Shown in pieces: positions 4,261-37,800 of a stretch of 64,000 bases of DNA. Position 1 is the stretch's first letter; each line of letters starts with the position of its first letter. The DNA lies in contig CM074518.1 in NCBI GenBank assembly GCA_037379345.1, positions 1,426,001-1,490,000 on the forward strand, given 5' to 3'. The notes beneath the pieces were generated by a model, which saw only the letters and a program-made list of their open reading frames with translations, did no database searches and had not been told where the DNA came from. The DNA comes from Perna viridis (lineage: Eukaryota). The position numbers and the translations under genes were made by a program.

Positions 4261-5530
4261 TATTTTTACAACCGATCGCTGATACTTACATTCCCTTACA
4301 CCACAAGTAGCATCACGTAATTCTATAAATATTTTTTTTGCCACTAATTATTTAGAATAAGATTAATATAAATTAAACCTAACAAAAGGACCATTCATAT
4401 ACAAGTACTAGTAAACATATGATATTACAAAATGAGCAAAATATAAGACTATCGTCATGGATTCACACCTGATAATTAAAACAGAGGTATCGGTGGGTTT
4501 ATAAATTAAAATTGATGTACTTAAGTCTTAAATTCCTGTCAGTCAAAAAATCAGAGACTTATATAAGTTGTCTCCGAATGAAGAATTTATTAGATAGAAC
4601 CAAACTTGGGACTTTGGGTAACTTAAATAGATAACTGAGTCTATAGTTTAGAAATAGCAAATATTGTTCAGATCAATCACATTATTCTATAACATATTAG
4701 TATATATAAATACAATGTATTAAAATAGCTAAGGGATGATGTGATGTTTACAGCCATTAATCTTGAGACAAAAAATAAAAAAAAGGAAATTCAATAGTAA
4801 CAACTATGACCAAGACAATTCCTCTATGAACACTAGTTTAATAGGGTAGCTGCAAATCTAGAATACCACCTGACCTATACCCGATTGGTTTATATTTATT
4901 CACATTAAACTGAGACAACAGAAATTTGACATTGGTATAGTTTGGGACAAGAAACTTTATAGGAGATGGTTCAGTAAGGGCAAAATTTTGTCTCAAAAAC
5001 AAAGTTTACATGAAAAAAACTTTGTTGTTTCTCCAGCTCTTAAATGAGTTTTAAAGTTGATTTGATTGATTTATGGTGATAATTAGAACATAGACAGTCA
5101 AATATGCCCTTTAAACTTGGTTGAGATTGGGAAAATCTGTTAAAATAAGCTAGAAAACACCAAATTTGGTGCAGTTTTTCACTCGTTTAGCAATGGCCAC
5201 ATGCATGTTGACTCTCGTGCTTCATATATTTTGTGTATAATTGTCAGTTACAACTCATGTAAAAATATCTTGAATCAACAGATGTGTGCCCATCTTGAAA
5301 ATTGTAGAAAAAGTTAAAGGTTTAAGTAAAAGTTACATAAATGCATACTGTTATTTCTGGAATAACATCATAAATCTCCTCAAAAACATCTTATATTCAG
5401 TGTTTGTGACCATTTTACAATAATACTACTACCTAGAAATCAGCTTTAATCAATTTTTCCAAAATGACCAAATTATGAGGCCAGAAGGGGTCCTTACCGA
5501 ACATTCTCCCTTGTATCCCTTACGTTTATA

Positions 5531-6304
5531 GCGAGCGCCATGAAGCAGTGCGAGCTCTACCATTATTACATGTACATTCTAAATTTCCCTTAAGGTTCCC
5601 TAATATACTAACGAAAAAAAAAAGTCATGTCCTAGAAGTAACAAAAAGTGACTGTCCTTACAGAGAAAATTCATCATTTCCTTCAGTCAAACAAATAAAA
5701 AAATATAGGTTATGATTACGTTTCAGTAAAAATAGATTCATCTTTTCTAATAGTTTTCAAGTCTTTTCTAATCTGTTTTACTCATTTAACGAAGTGAATG
5801 TTATGTTTATAAAAACTTCGGAAATACCACGTGGATGTACATACATATATCTCCGCTGTTCCACTGTTGCAGTTGTCAAGAAGCTAACCCACCTTGGAAA
5901 AAAATATAACTGATTATTTTATCAAAATCAAAGCATAGCTTTTCTAAGATAGGAAAGGCAATCATTTTCTTGTTTGGAATTTGCAGCTGTCATCTGAATT
6001 TTGTTTACGTCACATAATATGTATAAAATATTCCCACCATCCATGGAGAACTTTAATATTTCCGGTATCTGTACAGATTGATCTGAAAGGCCAAAACTAA
6101 AAAAACTCCCCCATTAATTAACAAGACATATTTTCAAATAGAAATATTGATTCTGCTTGCTGGTTAAACATAAATAAAAATATAGCACTTGCGAAGCAAA
6201 AATTTTCATCTGGGTGGCCCCCCCCCTTCTTTGTAATGTCCATTATTATTTTTACGCATCTCACACAGACGGTACATATATATAGTAAAGCTCACGGTGC
6301 TCGC
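5531..6304. mobile_element. Putative MITE / non-autonomous DNA element
   Basis: Imperfect inverted ends: gcgagcgcc...gcgagctctaccat...atgtac versus reverse complement gcgagcaccgtgagctttactat...atgtac. Confidence 0.4.
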
Positions 6305-8754
6305 TGATTTAAGCAATGCCTACCCCACATTAGTCATTACCACTACACATTTAGTAACACCTAATGAGAAACTGATATCAAAGGGTAGATTTCCAGGTCA
6401 ACCTTCCGGCATTACTGTCTCAAGAAACCTCAGACTAAGCTTGTCACATCAATATTGACAAACAAGATAAAGTTAGTAAGTAAAGGATATAGTATACTTA
6501 GGGATGTTTTGGCCACCAGTACTATTTAGAAAAAAGAAACTTAGGTTGGCAAGTCAATTTAAACAACTGGAAATAATAACAGTAGATGAAACTAAATTTT
6601 ATAGGAAGCTTGTTATAATTTGTCATATGACGTTCACCAAAAAAATATTGTAATAATAAATCTACAATTTTGATCTGTAAAAGTGGAATGTTGTCTTTGA
6701 AGTAAAAATGCTGTTAAGGTTGAAAATTGTAGCAAGTAATGAAACCAAATATAGAACCATACCATTATTTTGTAACATTTTCACCAAGTACAGATAGTTT
6801 ATTAATTCTGATTATTGAAATTGACATAAAATCCTTTAAACCTAGTAATGGTTCTGTGTTATAATCAACTTAATTAATTACAAATATGAAATTCTGATTG
6901 ATTTTAATAGAAACAAATCAGAAAAAAAATCCCAAAAATTGGAGTTAGAGCACTCAAACAGCAAATACAGTACATTTGAACTGGGCATAAAACTTGACAA
7001 AATGGGAAAAAAATATATAAATGAGCAAAATGTCCCTGGAAAATTTTTAAAAGAGGTACACTGTGAACTTAAGGATTTCAAATCCAACAATATCAGTATT
7101 TCTGTCTCATTGACAACATTTGTTCCCATAGGTCAGCTCTAGAGTATCTTCTGATTGCATAGATAAAAGCACTCAAATCTCCTCCAAAAAGTAGCTAACT
7201 ATTGCAGTCATCTAAAGACTATGAAAGTTATCAATGAACTAAATGATGGAATTGCAAAAAGTTTTCTTTAAAAAAATTGAATGATGAATTCGAATACTAC
7301 TTACATTGAACTCAAAAATATAAAGTATTTAAGACTTTTCTTAATACACTATTGAGTGTGGGTCATGTCAGGTAAATATTTCATGGCAGTTATATACATT
7401 AGACCCTAGTAGTTTTATTAAATGAGAGATATGAAATAACTAAATAGGTTTACATACAAGATCATGAAAAACAGGCAAAAAAAAAAAATAAACATAAGAG
7501 TGATCTGATGACAATAGAGGAAAAAAAAACTCAAAATTTTCAAATGAAGGGAATATTCTCAGAACATATTATGCTATTACCTAGTGATAGGGATTAACAA
7601 GTGTATACCAAGCCAAATAACAAGCTATTTATAGCAACAAACTTTAATGACCTAATTACAAAAGGTCACCGGCAAAAAAATGAGATTCTTAGTATGAACA
7701 CTTTAGATATACTCTTACATTTACCATAAAGAAACACATTTAGTTATAAATTTAAGGCCAATTCAAAACGTTAACATTAAAATGATATACAACAAAGTAT
7801 TCTATATATAAAACTGAACAAACACACACACAAACACGCACACACACACACATCTTATTAACAAAAATAAATGAAGTATTTCAACAAATAATGCACACAA
7901 CTCTTGAGCACTAATAGTTAACAGAGAGAGACAACAAAGAACTCAAATGGGTATAAATCAATTCAACATTGAATTTACAAGAGTACTTATATTATTATAC
8001 TGATGTTTACAATGAATCTCAACAAGAAAACCCAACTTAAGAAAAAAAGAAAAATGATTCCAGTAAAAATATCTGCAAGATATCCTTACACATGTAATAT
8101 ATTGAGTAATTAATGAACATTCTAAAATATAATACATATAAATAAGGATCATTATATAATAGAACAGAACCACCTAATGATAACTAGCTGTGTTATATAT
8201 CAATTCAATATTAAAAAAAAACTCTACATATTAACATAAAATATTTCTATTTCTGGCATTTTCTGAGCATCTAGAGAGTTAAATAAATACTATGAAAGAC
8301 AAAAAGTTTGGCAGAAGTTAAAATATGGCAAATAATACAAGCTAATAATAAAATGTACTAATCTAGAACTAATGTAAACAATACATGTCATTTTTAATAC
8401 ATTAGCCAAGGTATAAGAGAGCAAAAATGATGTACGATAGATAATGTACTAATTGCTCATACAGACAATTAAATATGCTAATTGGTATTAATTTATAATT
8501 ATATTTTTTTTCTATATTACTTTCCATGCAAAAATTTAGTGATTCCATTTGTTACTGATTACAGCCTATGTTGTCTTTGAAAGAAAAAATAAAAATAAAG
8601 AGTAACAGTTTTGGCAAAATGAGTACATACATACCATTCTATTTTGGTATTACATAATAAACAAAATAATAATAATAATATTTAATAAGCTTACAATAAA
8701 TAAAATCAACACAACATACAACAGGTCCATATCTGTTAATCTACGGAACAGTAA

Positions 8755-9035
8755 ATGTGGTATATTCTCCCTCAAGACTGTCACGTGTGGGAGTTTCTCC
8801 CTCATTGAGTGACGTGTGGTATATTCTCCCTCATTGACTGTCGTGTGTGGGAGTTTCTCCCTCATTGACTGTCATGTGTGGTATATTCTCCCTAATTGAC
8901 TGTCATGTGTGGTATATTCTCCCTCATTGACTGTCATGTGTGGGAGTTTCTCCCTCATTGACTGTCATATGTGGTATATTCTCCCTCTTTGACTGTCATG
9001 TGTGGGAGATTCTCCCTCACTGACTGTCATACGTG
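8755..9035. repeat. Minisatellite, ~31 bp unit (tctccctcattgactgtcatgtgtggtatat), ~9 copies
   Basis: Direct repeats; the adjoining 9035-9198 segment resembles 12795-12958 (dispersed repeat). Confidence 0.9.
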
Positions 9036-9991
9036 GGTGATTTTTCACATAAAAGCAAATTTTTCACGTAAAAAATCAATTGTTTAGTGTTTAACAAAAT
9101 ATGTAGTAATTTTTATTATAAATATCCCACAAAATTTATATTTCTATGTGGGAGATTTTCAGTTTTTCATTGATTTTGTGGGAGGATTAACAGGTATGAT
9201 GGTCTTCAATCAGAGCTAATTTTCTCAGAGAACAGAAATAATACATGCATTAATTCTAATGATTTATTTTGTACCTTATATCTCTATTATCATGTTTATC
9301 TCATGTAAGCCAATTATCTTTCATAAGTTTATTCTGGAATTGAAAAATGTTACAACAATTAACTTTTGTAATGACCTACTTCACACATGTCAACCACAAA
9401 TAGTAACAGAATCATTTTCTTTTTATCAATAATGAAATCAGAATGTATTTTGTAATCAATGAGTATACCATTGTTTACATAAGTAGTAGAAATCCAATAT
9501 TATTGTAGGGACTTAAGATGTACAAAACAAAACAATATATTCTGACATGTGACCATAAAATTTATTTTCTTGTTTATTGTTGATGTAAAATGTTTAAGGG
9601 TTACAACAGTTCTTGAACACATGTATAAAATTCAATGAGAAAAATAAGTCTATAAAAACAAAGTAACATCTAAAAACCACACTTGTAAGTATCATAAACA
9701 AAGAAAAGGACTTTTCTGACAACTTTATAATACTTCAACACTCATGACATTGAAAACATGGAAGATAAAAAGTTAACAAATATAGCATATCTTCTAAATT
9801 GCACATATCCATTAACTGTCAATGTATATAATCCTGTTCATCAGTTTTGTTCATATATAAATTGTTAACGAGAATCAACAAGTCAATTCTGTACACGGTG
9901 TATCAGACTGGTACTGAAGATGTTGTATGGGCCATATGAGACAATGTCTTAATATCGTACTGACTGGTAGAAGAATTACTTGATAGGACTT

Positions 9992-10240
9992 TTATCTTGT
10001 ATTGTGGACTAGAACTAGACCAAGTTTAGGAGTCCAGAATAGACAAGCAGTCCAAAAGTCTGCAACAGATATAGATTCCAGAAACCCAGAACAGACAAGA
10101 AGTCTAGGAGTCCAAAAACTCACAACAGACATGGAGTCCATGAGTTCAGAAGTCCATGAACCCAGAACAGACATAGAGTCAGAGAGACCAGGATCATAAA
10201 TTACAAGTAGTTGACTAAGCACACTAGAATCTACCAGTCT
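9992..10240 (-). other. Probable terminal (3'UTR) exon start of PLCL; true 3' end unknown and probably further left
   Basis: Strong acceptor tattttattttacag|AGACTG at 10241/10240, downstream of the donor at 10746; followed by a long U-rich sense-strand region. Confidence 0.5.
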
Positions 10241-10316
10241 CTGTAAAATAAAATACCATTATTAGCTATATACCAAGTAGATAATAAACTGCCTGAAAGA
10301 TGTTTGTGTTCTGTGC

Positions 10317-10440
10317 ACAAATCATGTATTTTCACCAGTGATCATATTTTAAGTTATTCATACAAATCATGTATTTTCACCAGTGATCATATTTTAAGTT
10401 ATTCGTACAAATCGTGTATTTTCACAGTGATCATATTTTC
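10317..10440. repeat. Tandem repeat, 45 bp x ~3
   Basis: acaaatcatgtattttcaccagtgatcatattttaagttattc repeated. Confidence 0.85.
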
Positions 10441-10506
10441 ACTTTTTTCACAAAAAATAATAGTGATGTAGTCTTACTACAACGTTTATTGTGAATTGTC
10501 TGATTG

Positions 10507-10768
10507 AACCCACCTGATCCTAAAGGACCGGTTTTGTTGTGTATTACCCTATTCAACCCACCTGATCATAAAGGACTGTTTATTGTGATGTCCAATTAAA
10601 CCCAACTGATCATAAAGGACTGTTTTTTTGTTTATTACCCAATTCAACCCATCTGATCATAAAGGGCTGTTTTTTGTGTATTACCCAATTTAACCCACCT
10701 GATCATAAAGGACTGTTTTTTTTGTGTATTACCCAATTTAACCCACCTGATCACAAAGGACTGTTTTG
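10507..10768. repeat. Minisatellite, ~44-49 bp x 6, made from the last-coding-exon end plus its splice donor
   Basis: Unit aacccacctgatcataaaggactgttttt...; the rightmost copy is the real exon end including the stop codon. Confidence 0.88.
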
Positions 10769-10834
10769 GTCTGAATAATCATCATCAGCATCACTCTCTT
10801 TCCTCAACCCTGTTGACCCTGAAGTCTCCACAAT
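10751..10834 (-). CDS. PLCL: PLCL last coding exon: [27 protein letters not shown]-stop
   Basis: tttttcag acceptor; TGA at 10751-10753, followed 4 nt later by a CAG|gtgggt donor (exon end 10747). Confidence 0.8.
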   Translation of the reverse strand: MVETSGSTGLRKESDADDDYSDQNSPL

Positions 10835-13800
10835 CTGAAAAAAAGTTTACCAGTGTTTTATCTACTATTGACACCATTTAATTCCAAGTTAATATGGCTT
10901 AAATATTAGTTTAAACATTTAATTGAAACATTAAAGAACATTAGTGTGCACACTAACAATACCTCAAAAGTACACATGTACACTCTTTCAAAAAATCCAG
11001 ACCCTATTACAAGATAATAATTGGTCCCCTTTATAATATAAGACAGCTGGCTGGTTGGAAATATTGTACCAATATACAAAAATAAGGGAGACAGTTCTGC
11101 CGCAAAGAATTTCTGCCTAATTACCATTGTCAGCTGTCTTGGAAAACTTTACACTGCTGTCTTAACCAAAAGACTGAAAAAATACTCTGATATTTTCATG
11201 ATCTTAAAAGACAATCATGTGGTTTTAGGGTAATCAAGGCAACCAAGATTGTAGTGGAAATCAACAGAATGTAATCCAGTCACAAGACCAGCCATGGCAA
11301 ACAGACAAACACAACAAAGAACATAAATTAACCAAAATAATACAAAGTAAAGTAACAAAAGTAAATGAGCACTTCCGACCCCACTAAAAACAGAGCATGG
11401 ACCAGGTGCACCAGTAGGGTAAGTGTCCTGTTTTCTAGAAACGCTTACCGCAAAAAAATTATCCCGTGCAATTATTGACTTTGAAAATGCAAGGCCAAAT
11501 TATGTCTTACTGACCAGTGTAGCCTTTTGTGCTAACTGTAAGATACTGTAAATATATTAATTTTTGCTGTGTACATATTTTCACTACTACCGAGATGGAC
11601 AGAAAATCATGAAAAAAATGTATCAGCAGAATGGAGTTTTAAACATTATATAACGATAATTATATTTTAAAACCCCATTAAATTAAGCTACTGCGAAAAA
11701 TAACAAATTTACAGTAGTCAATGGGCATGCGTGGAGCATGCTCAATATACACTTCCACAAGGATAATTCTTATAATCTGTTCAAGCTCTACCTTGCGGAA
11801 TTATATTTTGAGCATGCTTATCAACTTCGCACAAAAGGGACTGTTTGGAAATCTTGACATGAGAGTGCAAAAACTGTTAACTACAGACTTTATAAAAAGA
11901 CTGTATGTTTTGAAGATTACTTTAAAACTCTAGATGAGAGTAAATCTTTACTACTATGTTGATTTAGAACAGTGAACCATAGATTACCCATAGAGACAGA
12001 CCATTGGTAAAATAGAAGTGAGCAAATTTGTTTCAGTAATTAGTGAACCATAGATTACCCATAGAGACAGATCACTGGTAAAATAGAAGTGAGGAAATTT
12101 GTTTCGGTAATCAGTGAACCATAGATTACCCATAAAGACAGACCATTGGTAAAATAGAAGTGAGGAAATTTGTTTCAGTAATCAGTGAACCATAGATTAC
12201 CCATAGACAGATCACTGGTAAAATAGAAGTGAGGAAATTTGTTTCGGTAATCAGTGAACCATAGATTACCCATAGAGACAGATCACTGGTAAAATAATAG
12301 CAAGGAAATTAGCTTCAGTAATCACTGTAACATAGGAATAAGGCTAAAAGTCTTCAAGGGTAAAAAGGAGTCACTCTAGAACTTCAATCCAATAAAAACT
12401 TAATGGATTTCTTCAAGCTGAAGAAGAATGGTCTTCACTTTTCTCAATCTCTGTTTTTTTTTTTTAGATATACCAAAATAAGTGGCTTACCACTATGTTA
12501 ATTCATAGATATGGTAGCCATGTTTTTAATGGAGCAAAAATCTCAAGGTAATTTCTGTGCAGGATACCAAAATGACCACTCATATCAACTTTTATCAAAA
12601 CATGTCAAGTATTTCGGAGATAAAGATGCTTCAATAAAAGTTTACTAGCAACGACATCAACTGACAACAACAATGAAGGCACCAAGTGATTGCTATAGCT
12701 CACATAGCCCTTTGTGTCAAGTAAGCTAAAATGCATACATATTAACCTTTTGGAACAATTCATATGGGAGATCCGCCCTAAACAGTGTCTCAGGTGAGAT
12801 ATTTTTATGTGAAAGCAAATTTATTAAGCAAAAATTCATTCATTTAGTATTTTTAACAGAAAAAATACTAATTTTGACCAAAAACCTCCACCAAATCTCA
12901 CATTTTTCATTGATTTTGTGGGAGCCTCCACCTTAATGAGGGAGAGTTCACAGGTATGTAAAAAAGACATCTTTCAACTTTAGTAGATCTATAATTTTGA
13001 ATATAGTATGGCATAAATTGGGAAATGAAAAATCTGAACAATATTTCATTATGCAGAATAAAAAATACAGAAGAAAACAAGTGCTTTTTTTTCCCAAAAA
13101 GTGTATTGCAGATGTTCAATTGGAAAGGTTATAAGAGTACACATGACCTTTGTGAGAGTAACTACCTGTCTCAAATATTCTTTACAATCATGTTTGGCTT
13201 GCATTAATAAATCAGCTTGACCTTTAAGCACCCTAATGTTCCATGCAAAGTTCTCCATTGCCTATAAAAGAAAAAAATGTATCTATATCATGTAACATTT
13301 GAAATTCAGTTTATAGAAATCGGAAGGCATTTACATCTCATACAAACTAATAAATCAAAATACATGGATGAGCTTACAATTATAACATGGCTCGCAGTAA
13401 CATATATCCACAGTGATGTATAATAAATGATTGATTAGAAATAACCATCTGTGACATTTAATGCAGCAGTCTCTATATAGAGAAGATGTGATTCATTCTT
13501 GTCAGTAACTCACAAAAATCACTTCATTTCTTATTCAGTTATAAATCATATAAACAGTCTTGGAAGGTTTTCTGTACACGGAATCTCCTCTCCCATCGGC
13601 TGGAGTTTTATAAGGATTGGTATGTACACTGAATCTCCTCTCCCATCGGCTGGAGTTTTATAAGGATTGGTATGTACACTGAATCTCCTCTCCCATCGGC
13701 TGGAGTTTTACAAGGATTGGTATGTACACTGAATCTCCTCTCCCATCGGCTGGAGTTTTATAAGGATTGGTATGTACACTGAATCTCCTCTCCCATCGGC

Positions 13801-31800: not shown

Positions 31801-34800
31801 TTGGCTACATTTGTGTACACAGGTACACCCTGAATTCTATAACCTGTACCTGTACCAAATTCCCTGTACCCAAATCACTGTATTGCCAATTTTTCTATTA
31901 TTATTTGGAATTTTATACTGAAACTTGGTCCTAAAGTTCTGAATGATGTTTTGAATCAGTTGAAGTTAAAACTAGTTGAAAACATTTATGATATTTTCAA
32001 AGTCAGTCGATTTTATGTTCTCATAAGTCCAGAAATGTATAACCAGAAGTTACTGTCACCAATGTCTAAAAAAATGTCAAGAGTTTAAATTTCATAATGT
32101 ACTGTAGCACGGATCCCTGTACCAGCAGAGATATGACCTTATCAAGAATGAAAAAGAAAGTCTCATAAAAAGAATCAGATGTGATTTTAATCCCCACCCT
32201 TGAATATTTTAATAAAAGTATGGCATTCTAGTGTGAAATATATGATAAAATTGTACAAATAACAAAATTACTGGACTTTGATTTTGGGTACGGGAATTTA
32301 GGGTTACACATTTAGGTACTTTTGAAAACTGAAAATCAAATAAAATCAAATTTTCTAACAATATTTTAAAAATCATTGATTCTAGTCTAGCCAAAATATC
32401 ATTTTTTAAATAAGTACAAATCATTTGCTGCAAAATGTCACATAATAATGAATAAAGAAGGGTATTTGGGTATGGGGGAAAGTTGGAATGGATAAACGTT
32501 ACACATTTCAGTATGTACCATGTACACAGGTAAAAATCAAAACACAAAATGGATGAGTGGGAAATACCAATAAAATCATAAAAGGCCAGTATTGTGGCAA
32601 AATAAAGACTAAACAGTAAATATTCTTTTACTGCATCATATTTTAGCTGTAAAAGGTAGAAGATGAAAACAATCTTCCTAAAACTGACGTTTACAATTTA
32701 TAATAACATTGGGGTAAATGATGCCGGTCTGGCTGTTCAATGGGTGTCATGCTCATGTCAATTATGAAGCTTTTAACATTTTTAAGCTGAAAATTTTATT
32801 CATAAACTAAATCTTGTCTATAATTGGAAACTTCCCCAGCAATTTAGTCCAAAAAGTCCAACTTATAGGCCAGTATATATGGTAATTAGCCCTATACAGT
32901 TAATTTTTGTTTATCGTAAGCTTTAATAGCCTCTATTTGGGCTACAACTGTCAACGGTCCCTTACCGTGTAAAGATGTCAACATTGAACACAGAAATAAA
33001 TAACATCAAAGATGTCAACATTGAACACAGAAATAAATAACATCAAAGACGTCAACATTGAACACAGAAATAAATAACATCAAAGATGACAACTAGTTTA
33101 CTGAAAAATTGTCTTAATTGAAAATACATATAACTATTTTTAACGGGCAAAGCAATGTCAAACCTTCCATGGTCTACAAAAAAAGGTAAGACTTTGGCAA
33201 GGATTAAAACTTACACCCTAACTTGGACAAGCATGCTAAGCTATGGCTAGACCATCAAAATCCATTAACTCCTGAACATGGACAAGCATGCTAAGATACT
33301 GCTAGATCATCAAAACCTTCCGTCATGCCAAAAAAATCTTAGCACTAAAATACATACTGTGACACTCTAAAAGCATATTCGTTGATCGTCTCTATAACGG
33401 ATTTGAAGGTGATTTTTGAGGTAAAAGTATGTCCATGGTAAATCATTGGTTCCTCGTTTGGACCGTCCCAGCAGTCCACTGAAATAACAAATCAATACTG
33501 TAAGGACTGTCCGAGCAGTCCACTGAAATAACAAACCAATACTGTAAGGACTATCCGAGCAGTCTACTGAAATAACAAATCAATAATGTAAGAACCGTCC
33601 GAGCAGTCCACTGAAATAACAAATCAATACTGTAAGGATCATCTCAGAAGTACACTGAAATAACAAATTAATACTGTAAGGACCATCACAGAAGTCCACT
33701 GAAATAACAAATCAATACTGTAAGGACCGTCCGAGCAGTCCATTGAAATAACAAATCAATACTGTAAGGACTATCTGAGCAGTCCACTGAAATAACAAAT
33801 CAATACTGTAAGGACTATCCGAGCAGTCCACTGAAATAACAAATCAATGCTGTAAGGATCGTCTCAGAAGTCCACTGAAATAATAAATCAATACTGTAAG
33901 GGTCGTCTCAGAAGTCCACTGAAATAACAAATTAATACTGCAAGGACCATCACAGAAGTCCACTGAAATAACAAATCAATACTGTAAGGACCATCCCAGC
34001 AGTCCACTGAAATAACAAATCAATACTGTAAGGACCGTCCGAGCAGTCCATTGAAATAACAAATCAATACTGTAAGGACTATCTGAGCAGTCCACTGAAA
34101 TAACAAATCAATGCTGTAAGGACTATCCGAGCAGTCCACTGAAATAACAAATCAATGCTGTAAGGATCGTCTCAGAAGTCCACTGAAATAACAAATCAAT
34201 ACTGTAAGGACCGTCTCAGAAGTCCACTGAAATAACAAATCAATACTGTAAGGACCGTCCGAGCAGTCCACTGAAATAACAAATCAATACTGTAAGGACT
34301 ATCTGAGCAGTCCACTGAAATAAAAAATCAATACTGTAAGGACTATCTGAGCAGTCCACTGAAATAACAAATCAATACTGTAAGGACCATCTCAGAAGTC
34401 CACTGAAATAAGAAATCAATACTGTAAGGACCATCCCAGCAGTCCACTCAAATCAATCTACATTGTATATACAGCCATATACTTTTAGGACTATCCCGGC
34501 AGTCCACTGTTGTATAGTGAAGACTGTCCAAGAACTATAATAGGATAATTAATTGGAAAGAGTGAATAACCAAATATGATCAAGAGTTCTGAAGAATGCC
34601 GGGATGTAACGAGTGTGCAGAACTTGTTCTGCGAGCGAGATCAATCTTTACGCGTTCTTGGCATGAGTGATCACATTATGATTATGCACAATAACCAATT
34701 GATCATCCTATTTACTATATAGATTTCCTCCATTATTCATTGCTATTTTCAATATGAATTTTATATTTTGTGAACGGCGGATTGATATTTGTATTGTGAA

Positions 34801-37800
34801 GTTTTGGCAGGAGAAAGTGTGAGAGTGAAATTACCAGATTTATTTCACAGTGTGAATTTTTTTAACACTGGAAACATTTGGTAAATCACTGCTATCTATA
34901 TAATAATGTATTTAACCTAGAGTTAACACCAATTATTTATGTTATTTCAAGTCTTGAAGCAGCGATTTGAATAAAATGCAGAGGAACTTTCACCACCAGT
35001 GCCTTATTTAACAAATGCACAATGTGCTTTCACCACTAGTTCCCTTCTGTATATGCATGTAGTGTGCTTTCACCACCAGTTCCCTTCTGTACATGTGTGT
35101 AGTGTTCTTTCACATCGACATCCTTTATCTAATGCATTACAAACTTACATTCTACACATTGACATCCTTTAACTAATGCATTACAAACTTACATTCCACA
35201 CATCGACATCCTTTATCTAATGCAGTTATATAAGCTTCTATACTGGAAGGTCCTTGTAACTGGTCTTTCATTAAATATCTACAAAACACAAATAGAAACA
35301 AAGGATTCTTATAGTACTGTAACATGTCAAGACTTTTAGACTTGATGTTAAGGTTCAGATTGTTCTACTCAAGCACTTTCTATGTTTTCTCTATAGCTTG
35401 CGCAGAACATTTATGTGAATGCCATAGACACTCACAATTTCCTTATAATGTATATTTGTGCATGCTACTGTTTGTTATCATATATATTTTGGGAAAGTTC
35501 ATAAGAACAAGTTTGTCCTCACTGTTTCCCCCCATTACAAGGTCCCTACTTTAGTTTGTCCATGTTTCTCATCAGTCATTTCATGTGTAAGGCACAAGAA
35601 CAGGTTGTGTTTTCCTTTTATTGTACCATGTATCAGTTAAATCTTTGGGTGCCACGATCTTCTTCCCTTTAGCCCCATTTATTAATTTTGTGCATGTGTA
35701 GCATCCATTACAATGACTGGGACACTCAACCAATCAATAATCTGAAGGGTCCCCAACAGAGTACAAAACCTCTGGCACTGTCTAATTCCAGGATACTGAC
35801 GAAGACTAAGATTCAGGACAGGGGCTGAAGAGACAGAGACTGACCCGTTACTAGGGCTACATACTTTAATAACCTTTTATTACAGACCAGAGCGGTCAAG
35901 CACAGTCTTTCACAATCTCCTACCAGGATCGATATTTTCCCTGGACTTATTGCAGGTGGTGTTGCCATAGATGTCACAATGGTAAGAGTTTGACTCCTGC
36001 AGAGCAAAAATTTGCTTTGCAAATTTGACAGTTCTAACATTGTTGGGGAATTTTTCAGACCCTTCTAAACTTATATTATCTTCCCTGTATCAATTTGATT
36101 CGATGGAGCAGTGTTTTGAAGTCATGTTATTATTTATAAACAAACCAAATAGGGGGTCTCTGATTATTCTTTAATGCTCTGGTATTTGTCTCTAATGAAT
36201 AGTATATTAAGTTGAATGGCTAATGTTCTTCATAAAACAAATATGTCATTTCATGATAGTTGGAATCAGTGCATTACCCTTGAGCAACCTTTGAGTATAT
36301 TGCCACACTACTAGTGCAGTTATAGTATAAAGAAAATATTCTATAGTGGTAAAGGCCACAACCCCAACATAACAACACTGTGACTACAATCTTGTTGTCA
36401 ATCAAGGAGAACACATTACAATTACTTTGTGTTTTGCACAATGTGTTTGTGTGTTTGTGACTTTTTGGGGGTAGTGATGTTATTATATCAACCTTAACTC
36501 TTAGCCATGCATGCAAACCCCATTTATATCAACCTTAACTCTTAGCCATGCATGCTAACCCCCCTTTTATATCAACCTTAACGCTTAGCTATGCATGCTA
36601 ACCCCCTTTTATATCAACCTTAACTCTTAGCCATGCATGATAACCCCATTTAATGAAGTTCTTCAAACTATTTTTGGTAACTTTTTTTAAAAATAAAAAA
36701 AATCCATATTCGATAAGAAATGAAAAAATATATTTCTTCCTTCATGCACATCTATATATGATACCTAATCTTCCTACAAAATTCCATCAAAATTCATTTA
36801 GCAGTTTAGATGGAGTTGCCCTTACAAGAAATGTGGGCAGACAAACAGAGTAACTTTGATTGTGAGGTAATTAATACATGAACTCTGTACAATCTAAATG
36901 AGTCCTGTATCAACCACTACCAGGATCTTAAATAATTTCCTTTTACATTGTTTCAATATTTTCTTCCTTGATTTGAAAAAAAGGCAACTAACTAATCTAG
37001 GAATTTTTTAATAAGTTTATTTAAAACAAGTCATGTTTAAATGTTTGCATGGTATAATTACTTCCTCATTGTAAAGAATGCTACACTAATATGGTCCAGA
37101 CTTAATCAAGTTTGCCCTTTGTTTAACCTTATACACCTAACTACCTTGGGAAAAAAAAACTTAACTGATAATGGCTTTATATGAAACTAGTGCTCTTCAG
37201 GAAATATGGTACTAGAATATTTGATGACAACCACTTAACAGTACATTCTGTGATTTACATGACTATGGCTAATTTCGTTTATCATGCCTAAATGCAAGGG
37301 GATTTTCTGTCTCAGAGTAAGAACTTTAAAATAGTGGTGCTGAAGAAATATGAAAATGGCACAATATAAAACATTTGTAAACGCTCACTTAATCAGCTCA
37401 ACTCTGCAGCTAAACTCAAAAAGCAATATTTTATTCTTTCTTAATACAATCTTGACCATACTAGCATTTACACTTACACAGTAAGTTAACCACTGTAGAT
37501 CATTACTCATGCTGAATAGCATACTCAATTCAACATCTCTTTCTGACTGGAATGTTTCGTATTCAAAGAGAAAGTGAAACAGGAAAATAAGCCAAACTGA
37601 TACAGAGAGATGAGAGAAGCTGATACAGGGAGATAAAAGAAACTGATACAGGGAGATTGAGAGATACTGATACAGGAAGATTGAGAGAAAACTGATTCAT
37701 GGAGATGAGAGAAACTGATTCATGGAGATGAGAGAAACTGATATATTGAGACGAGAGAAACTGTTACAGGGAGATGAAAGATACTGAATATTACCTCAAA

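Follow-up and report, generated by a model that had tools for sequence, protein, structure and literature searches.

A PLCL2-type gene with a spliced 3'UTR intron

The window, a 64,000-nt stretch of Perna viridis DNA, carries exons of a PLCL2-type phospholipase C gene on its minus strand. With 80 kb of adjoining genome added, the gene was modelled as 26 exons encoding 1063 aa with no internal stops, and the modelled protein shares 969 identities with Mytilus edulis P0002, which bears the NCBI name PLCL2 and contains the domains PF16457, PF09279, PF00388, PF00387, and PF00168. With one exon (17064-16873) as the query, a protein search picked out 30 proteins from 73 candidates, with Mytilus PLCL2 at the top (97%). 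The orthology is full-length and covers the PH, EF-hand, X, Y, and C2 domains and the C-terminal extension, which places the predicted protein among the PLCL1/2 (PRIP-like) family; on this homology, we assign the gene to the PLCL2-type phospholipases C of mussels. Metagenome contigs searched with the last 60 residues of P0002 yielded 337 pattern matches, none of which was confirmed as a relative. For exon 11, the automatic donor call (33364, score −3.0) probably misses the true site by 6 nt, which leaves the junction counts given below unaffected.

The 88-nt last coding exon is preceded by a T-rich acceptor and ends in TGA-TCAG, followed by GTGGGT. Since the Mytilus and oyster proteins stop where the frame of exon 10834-10747 stops, the TGA at 10753-10751 is the normal stop; for the same reason, a mis-called stop with coding continuing past the intron was rejected. 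As the earlier note had claimed, the stop is followed after 4 nt by CAG/GTGGGT (the slash marks the exon end, 10747), and an acceptor that it had called strong lies at 10241, scoring 10.4 on a matrix derived from the 25 AG acceptors of the gene itself (2.7–12.4). The intron that these two sites imply was spliced at exactly the predicted donor and acceptor in all seven RNA runs examined: the joint 10240-10747 skips 506 nt and has GT..AG ends. The view that this intron is merely predicted, or that the UTR stays unspliced between these positions, was thereby rejected.

The seven runs, out of 24 listed, probably amount to six data sets, drawn from five studies: X17 seems to be X1 deposited again (they have in common a 3842-nt contig and a 193-nt piece at depth 2.44), and the two were counted once. 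X21 alone is on record as RNA; the other runs were taken as RNA by guess, and their contigs are spliced. Joints were listed when backed by at least three raw reads, and contigs lose rare variants. Contig depth over the joint 10240-10747 was 33 in X1, 33.2 in X17, 23.9 in X2, 11.1 in X12, 9.9 in X3, and 7.9 in X7, and in X21 the joint was backed by three raw reads with three starts (19% of the run). The upstream joint 10834-13166, which served as a control, was present in all four runs checked (eight raw reads).

Beyond the intron, same-strand reads and tiling contigs run to 4300 and further with rising depth. With these pieces taken as a single transcript, the 3'UTR probably has a length of about 6 kb or more. 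A second 3'UTR intron was considered and rejected; no CT..AC joint was listed in 4300-10240, and the joints at 5699-6278, which fall within a multi-copy stretch, have ends other than CT..AC. This region also holds a 31-nt minisatellite (8756-9042) and the multi-copy stretch itself (about 5212-6427), and several allelic substitutions and small indels were seen among runs.

Table 1. Features around the 3'UTR intron and arrays at other junctions of the gene (window positions unless a contig is named)
Feature	Position	Strand	Basis or remark
Penultimate coding exon (25 of 26 modelled)	13166..13261	-	94% match to P0002; joint 10834-13166 in RNA
Last coding exon, 88 nt (27 codons and stop, then 4 nt of 3'UTR)	10747..10834	-	Match to Mytilus C-terminus; spliced on both sides in RNA
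Stop codon TGA	10751..10753	-	Homologous C-termini
48-nt minisatellite, 5.7 copies; first unit spans exon end and donor	10503..10768	-	TRF, 85% matches, score 367
Authentic donor CAG/GTGGGT, exon end 10747, 4 nt past stop	10741..10749	-	Used in 7/7 runs
Spare donor, copy 2, exon end 10699, 52 nt past stop	10693..10701	-	Intact, no use seen; sequence, RNA runs
Copies 3 and 4, exon ends 10653 and 10606	10600..10655	-	GT lost by two different +1 changes
Spare donor, copy 5, exon end 10562, 189 nt past stop	10556..10564	-	Intact, read through unspliced; piece 10456-10648
Spare donor, copy 6, exon end 10514, 237 nt past stop	10508..10516	-	Intact, read through unspliced; contig pieces
3'UTR intron, 506 nt, GT..AG	10241..10746	-	Joint 10240-10747; low-level retention in some runs
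Second, unrelated minisatellite within the 3'UTR intron, 45-nt unit, 2.8 copies	10317..10439		
Acceptor of 3'UTR intron, outside both arrays	10241..10260	-	Score 10.4; use in RNA
Non-coding terminal exon	4300..10240	-	Contig 8939-10240 with coding exons; same-strand coverage to at least 4300
Sister array at donor of coding exon 10 (exon end 35193), 44-nt unit	35111..35224	-	One intact copy
Sister array at acceptor of coding exon 11 (33478), 44-nt unit	33460..34453	-	21 upstream copies, 19 with AG
Fourth junction array, acceptor of exon 3, 47-nt unit	G000:C8:1509994-1510278		5 copies, all with AG

A minisatellite copies the donor of the 3'UTR intron

The exon end and donor lie in the first unit of a 48-nt minisatellite (Table 1), a repeat that, with its TRF score, is not due to chance; alignment of its units gave a mean column identity of 89%. 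Six GATCAG units place exon ends at 10747, 10699, 10653, 10606, 10562, and 10514. CAG/GTGGGT is intact at the first, second, fifth, and sixth of them, and the +1 G has changed to A at 10653 (reading AT) and to T at 10606 (reading TT). The ladder is therefore as first described, with the exon-end-plus-donor unit copied five more times, three copies intact and two lost, and the distances of the intact ones from the stop (52, 189, and 237 nt, with 4 nt for the first donor) hold as well. The four intact donors share one 9-mer and one score (6.8, among the lower third of the 25 donors on the gene's own matrix), so the sequence does not forbid use of the spare ones. RNA pieces inside the array show no differences from the window. 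GT is kept in three of the five spare donors, versus 4.1 expected from the change rate of the other columns (P = 0.21); this survival matches neutral decay, and the test (n = 5) shows selection neither for nor against the spare GTs.

The array would have arisen by the general tandem-duplication process of this genome, like the other arrays here. It began at the exon end, inside an intron that probably owes nothing to it, since some 260 nt separate the array from the acceptor, with a second, unrelated array in between. An origin of the intron from the array itself (a Rogers-type AG/GT duplication) was rejected, as the array does not include the acceptor and its copies make poor acceptors, scoring −2.6 to 1.0 versus 2.7–12.4 for the 25 modelled AG acceptors of the gene.

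Only the first donor is seen in spliced RNA

No joint at 10699, 10562, or 10514 was listed in any of the seven runs, at the threshold of at least three reads, with three raw junction reads and with contigs that drop rare forms. Within the same read limits, this includes the 52-nt product of donor 10699, which would be expected largely to escape the 50–55-nt rule. Because pieces of depth 2.4 survived beside a contig of depth 33 in X1/X17, we infer that a downstream-donor form above about one tenth of the steady-state RNA would have appeared there; forms destroyed by NMD could lie below that level.

RNA from within the intron was found unspliced. In X1/X17 and X7, low-depth pieces (2.4–5.7) lie between 10330 and 10648, run across donors 10562 and 10514 unbroken, and extend into sequence absent from every spliced form. 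The piece 10456-10648 (X1/X17) reads through both of these donors at 2.4 versus a spliced depth of 33, and the piece 10375-10537 (X7) reads through donor 10514, with an intronic depth of about 2.6 versus 7.9 spliced. In X21, depth was 0 over 10265-10621 and averaged 2.0 over 10673-10723, which fits two same-strand raw reads running through 10699. In our reading, some samples splice the last intron slowly or retain it to a modest degree, and the data do not reflect use of another donor; a minor share of the transcripts would keep the 3'UTR intron, with the protein unaltered.

In the last coding intron, a multi-copy element at 11292-11595 attracted reads on both strands, with a summed contig depth in the thousands.

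Arrays at other junctions of the gene

Tandem arrays are common here: 36 merged arrays make up 20% of the window. Four of the 52 modelled junctions lie inside arrays, with 1.5 expected from random placement of 48 arrays in the gene span (P of at least four = 0.066, all four junction arrays counted); without the junction that prompted the analysis, the count is 3 of 51 and P is about 0.2 (0.195, computed for n = 52). An array at a splice junction is thus within chance for this genome, and a mild enrichment is possible at P = 0.066. At the donor of coding exon 10 (AAT/GTAAGT), an identical copy lies 44 nt downstream, the use of which would shift the frame. The array at coding exon 11 repeats the acceptor and the first ~18 nt of the exon; 19 of 21 copies keep TTTCAG, and homology points to the last copy as the acceptor used. 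At four further junctions (23537, 17714, 15047, and 38299), an array starts within 13–49 nt without containing the site, and arrays may be somewhat enriched near exon edges.

Comparison with known junction-spanning arrays

Several published cases resemble this locus; the sources cited below with "in part" were available as partial text. In human F7 intron 7, the first unit of a 37-bp VNTR spans the exon end, and the pseudo-sites function once the first site is mutated but offer it no competition (Borensztajn et al. 2006, PMC1557585, in part). The same partial text states that LMNB2 and PDGF use the first donor exclusively, and it summarises minisatellites of human CBS intron 13 and the interferon-inducible 6-16 intron 2, which share the anatomy of the mussel array and at which two pseudo-sites are also used. 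As in F7, the first monomer of the mussel array lies over the exon-intron boundary, several pseudo-donors are identical, the intronic sequence is gtgggt, and the most upstream donor alone is used. The two differ in that the F7 intron is coding, whereas the mussel intron lies wholly in the 3'UTR, so that alternative use would leave the protein unchanged; moreover, copy-number polymorphism and spare-site function were shown for F7, whereas the mussel array is known from one sequence plus RNA.

In amphioxus, "mirage" arrays copy donors or acceptors, and splicing appears undisturbed (PMC3087553, in part). Those of Adh3 and the globins BflGb6 and BflGb9 are likewise tandem boundary copies, many with GT/AG and with normal splicing, and, like the mussel arrays, they occur several per genome in a marine invertebrate (PMC3087553, in part). 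The mussel, however, is a bivalve, with four arrays in one gene, one of them at a 3'UTR intron.

The position of the junction also has parallels. Riley et al. (2025, PMC13223760, in part) place most annotated human junctions confined to UTRs less than 55 nt past the stop, where the mussel junction also lies, at 4 nt; theirs are human data, and duplicated donors do not come up in the text covered. Alternative splicing coupled to NMD (AS-NMD) through the 3'UTR, as in HRAS (PMC13223760, in part) and hnRNP A2/B1 (PMC3091714, in part), follows the logic of a switch by donor choice. In those genes, however, the alternative isoforms are observed and respond to UPF1 loss, whereas the alternative junction was not seen at the mussel locus: an intron downstream of the normal stop is spliced here (10240-10747), and a used junction more than 50–55 nt past the stop was found in none of the seven runs, a count of limited power.

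Idle pseudo-donors or a decay switch

The array 10503-10768 contains an RNA-supported exon end, it keeps the splice signal in many but not all of its intronic copies (3/5), and its most upstream donor gives the dominant form in all seven runs. We hold with considerable confidence that the locus is a junction-spanning minisatellite with silent pseudo-donors, in the arrangement of F7 and of the amphioxus mirages, where the first donor usually wins. The minisatellite copied the donor of a spliced 3'UTR intron five times, and the RNA examined uses the first donor alone; very probably the copies are neutral pseudo-donors, and decay that depends on junctions is predicted to spare the mRNA. The most upstream of identical donors would be chosen, as the F7 experiments suggest, and the main mRNA, with its junction 4 nt past the stop, would be immune to junction-dependent decay under the 50–55-nt rule. 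The copies are probably not a decay switch but idle repeats of a kind already known.

Such a switch had been the central proposal of the earlier note: donor choice would decide whether the mRNA is subject to NMD. Downstream donors would be used in some conditions, and junctions 189 or 237 nt past the stop would expose the mRNA to EJC-dependent NMD, giving less PLCL2 with an unaltered protein. The 3'UTR intron is indeed real in RNA, and three spare donors identical to the used one straddle the 50–55-nt line; however, no downstream joint was seen in the seven runs, not even the borderline one at 52 nt, and the intronic RNA runs through these sites unspliced. The five spare GTs bear no sign of selection to keep them, their loss matching a neutral rate, and the gene has three more junction arrays, all at coding exons. 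Use of pseudo-sites is known in CBS and 6-16, but in the F7 experiments the first donor excludes later ones (PMC1557585, in part). As to the decay itself, the genome has matches to a UPF3-family gene and to Mago nashi, which attest the parts and not the dependence, and a snail CRISPR study goes no further than suggesting possible NMD activity in molluscs (PMC12277549, in part). Drosophila and C. elegans, however, define premature stops without needing introns (PMC4770240, in part), and in human HCT116 cells, true 3'UTR introns above and below 55 nt showed no significant difference, distance being no predictor of UPF1 sensitivity (PMC13223760, in part). In the literature covered, which left out most subscription papers, no direct test of EJC-dependent NMD in molluscs was found. 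We regard a hidden switch as improbable, and give the same slim chance to its graded form, an NMD dial built by the minisatellite, in which tissue or stress would govern use of the 52-, 189-, and 237-nt donors and decay would be too fast for ordinary RNA-seq. Products removed by NMD would be scarce at steady state. If the dial were true, repeat number would tune the level of the phospholipase C, making the locus a ready ruler by which to test the 50–55-nt rule in molluscs; a switch would be a repeat-born regulatory device, which the data do not show.

A shade less probable again is that the regulated variable is not donor choice at all but intron retention, or polyadenylation inside the intron, with the array favouring retention or supplying poly(A) signals and a short 3'UTR replacing the very long one. 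The unspliced pieces of X1/X17 (depth 2.4–5.7 versus 33) and X7 and the roughly two raw reads of X21 agree with retention, as does the lack of depth in X17 over 11900-12811 of the upstream intron; however, X3 has no intronic contig depth, X2 and X12 have none at 10380-10683, and the slight depth of X2 in the upstream intron (0.72) means that precursor RNA or DNA can contribute. Three AATAAA motifs, at 10636, 10584, and 10490, would suit polyadenylation, but AATAAA is frequent in A+T-rich DNA, the pieces reach 10330, beyond the last of the three, and no cluster of molecule ends was listed, at low depth. Least probable, and in our view barely credible, is that the copies are recursive (ratchet) sites, each used as an acceptor and then as a donor. 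The intact copies do read AG/GT, the exon-end CAG would rebuild a donor, and the final mRNA would be the one observed; yet their acceptor scores fall under those of all 25 modelled acceptors, no joint from 10747 to any copy was listed, and the intron is just 506 nt long.

With idle pseudo-donors as the preferred reading, the locus adds a bivalve case to a known arrangement and is of modest significance. What is unusual is its place at a 3'UTR intron, with copies straddling the NMD boundary: first-donor preference appears here where no reading frame needs protection. Its practical value is that of a natural reporter, in which loss of the donors one after another would shift the junction from 4 to 52, 189, and 237 nt past the stop with the protein unchanged, and which could tell whether NMD in molluscs relies on exon junction complexes.

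Other observations in the gene and window

Open frames at 1722-2434 on the plus strand presumably resemble a reverse-transcriptase fragment of a retroelement. Intron 2 of the model (minus strand, G000:C8:1518545-1518673) holds the first 43 codons of exon 1 a second time, nearly identical and with their upstream flank. Intron 4 (minus strand, G000:C8:1501609-1503060) starts with ATATCCTT, ends in AC, and has TTCTTTAAC just upstream of its end; it resembles a U12-type AT-AC intron. Although PLC-like proteins of this type are "inactive" by name, the Mytilus protein aligns to PLC-delta1 and retains the motifs SSSHNTYL, ELDCWDG, IYHG, and ENHCS, which are also retained in the window exons 38416-38299, 35278-35193, 33478-33364, and 29542-29374. 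We assume that the catalytic residues sit in these motifs and that some of them are missing in vertebrate PLCL1/2; the mussel PLCL2-type enzyme may be catalytically active.
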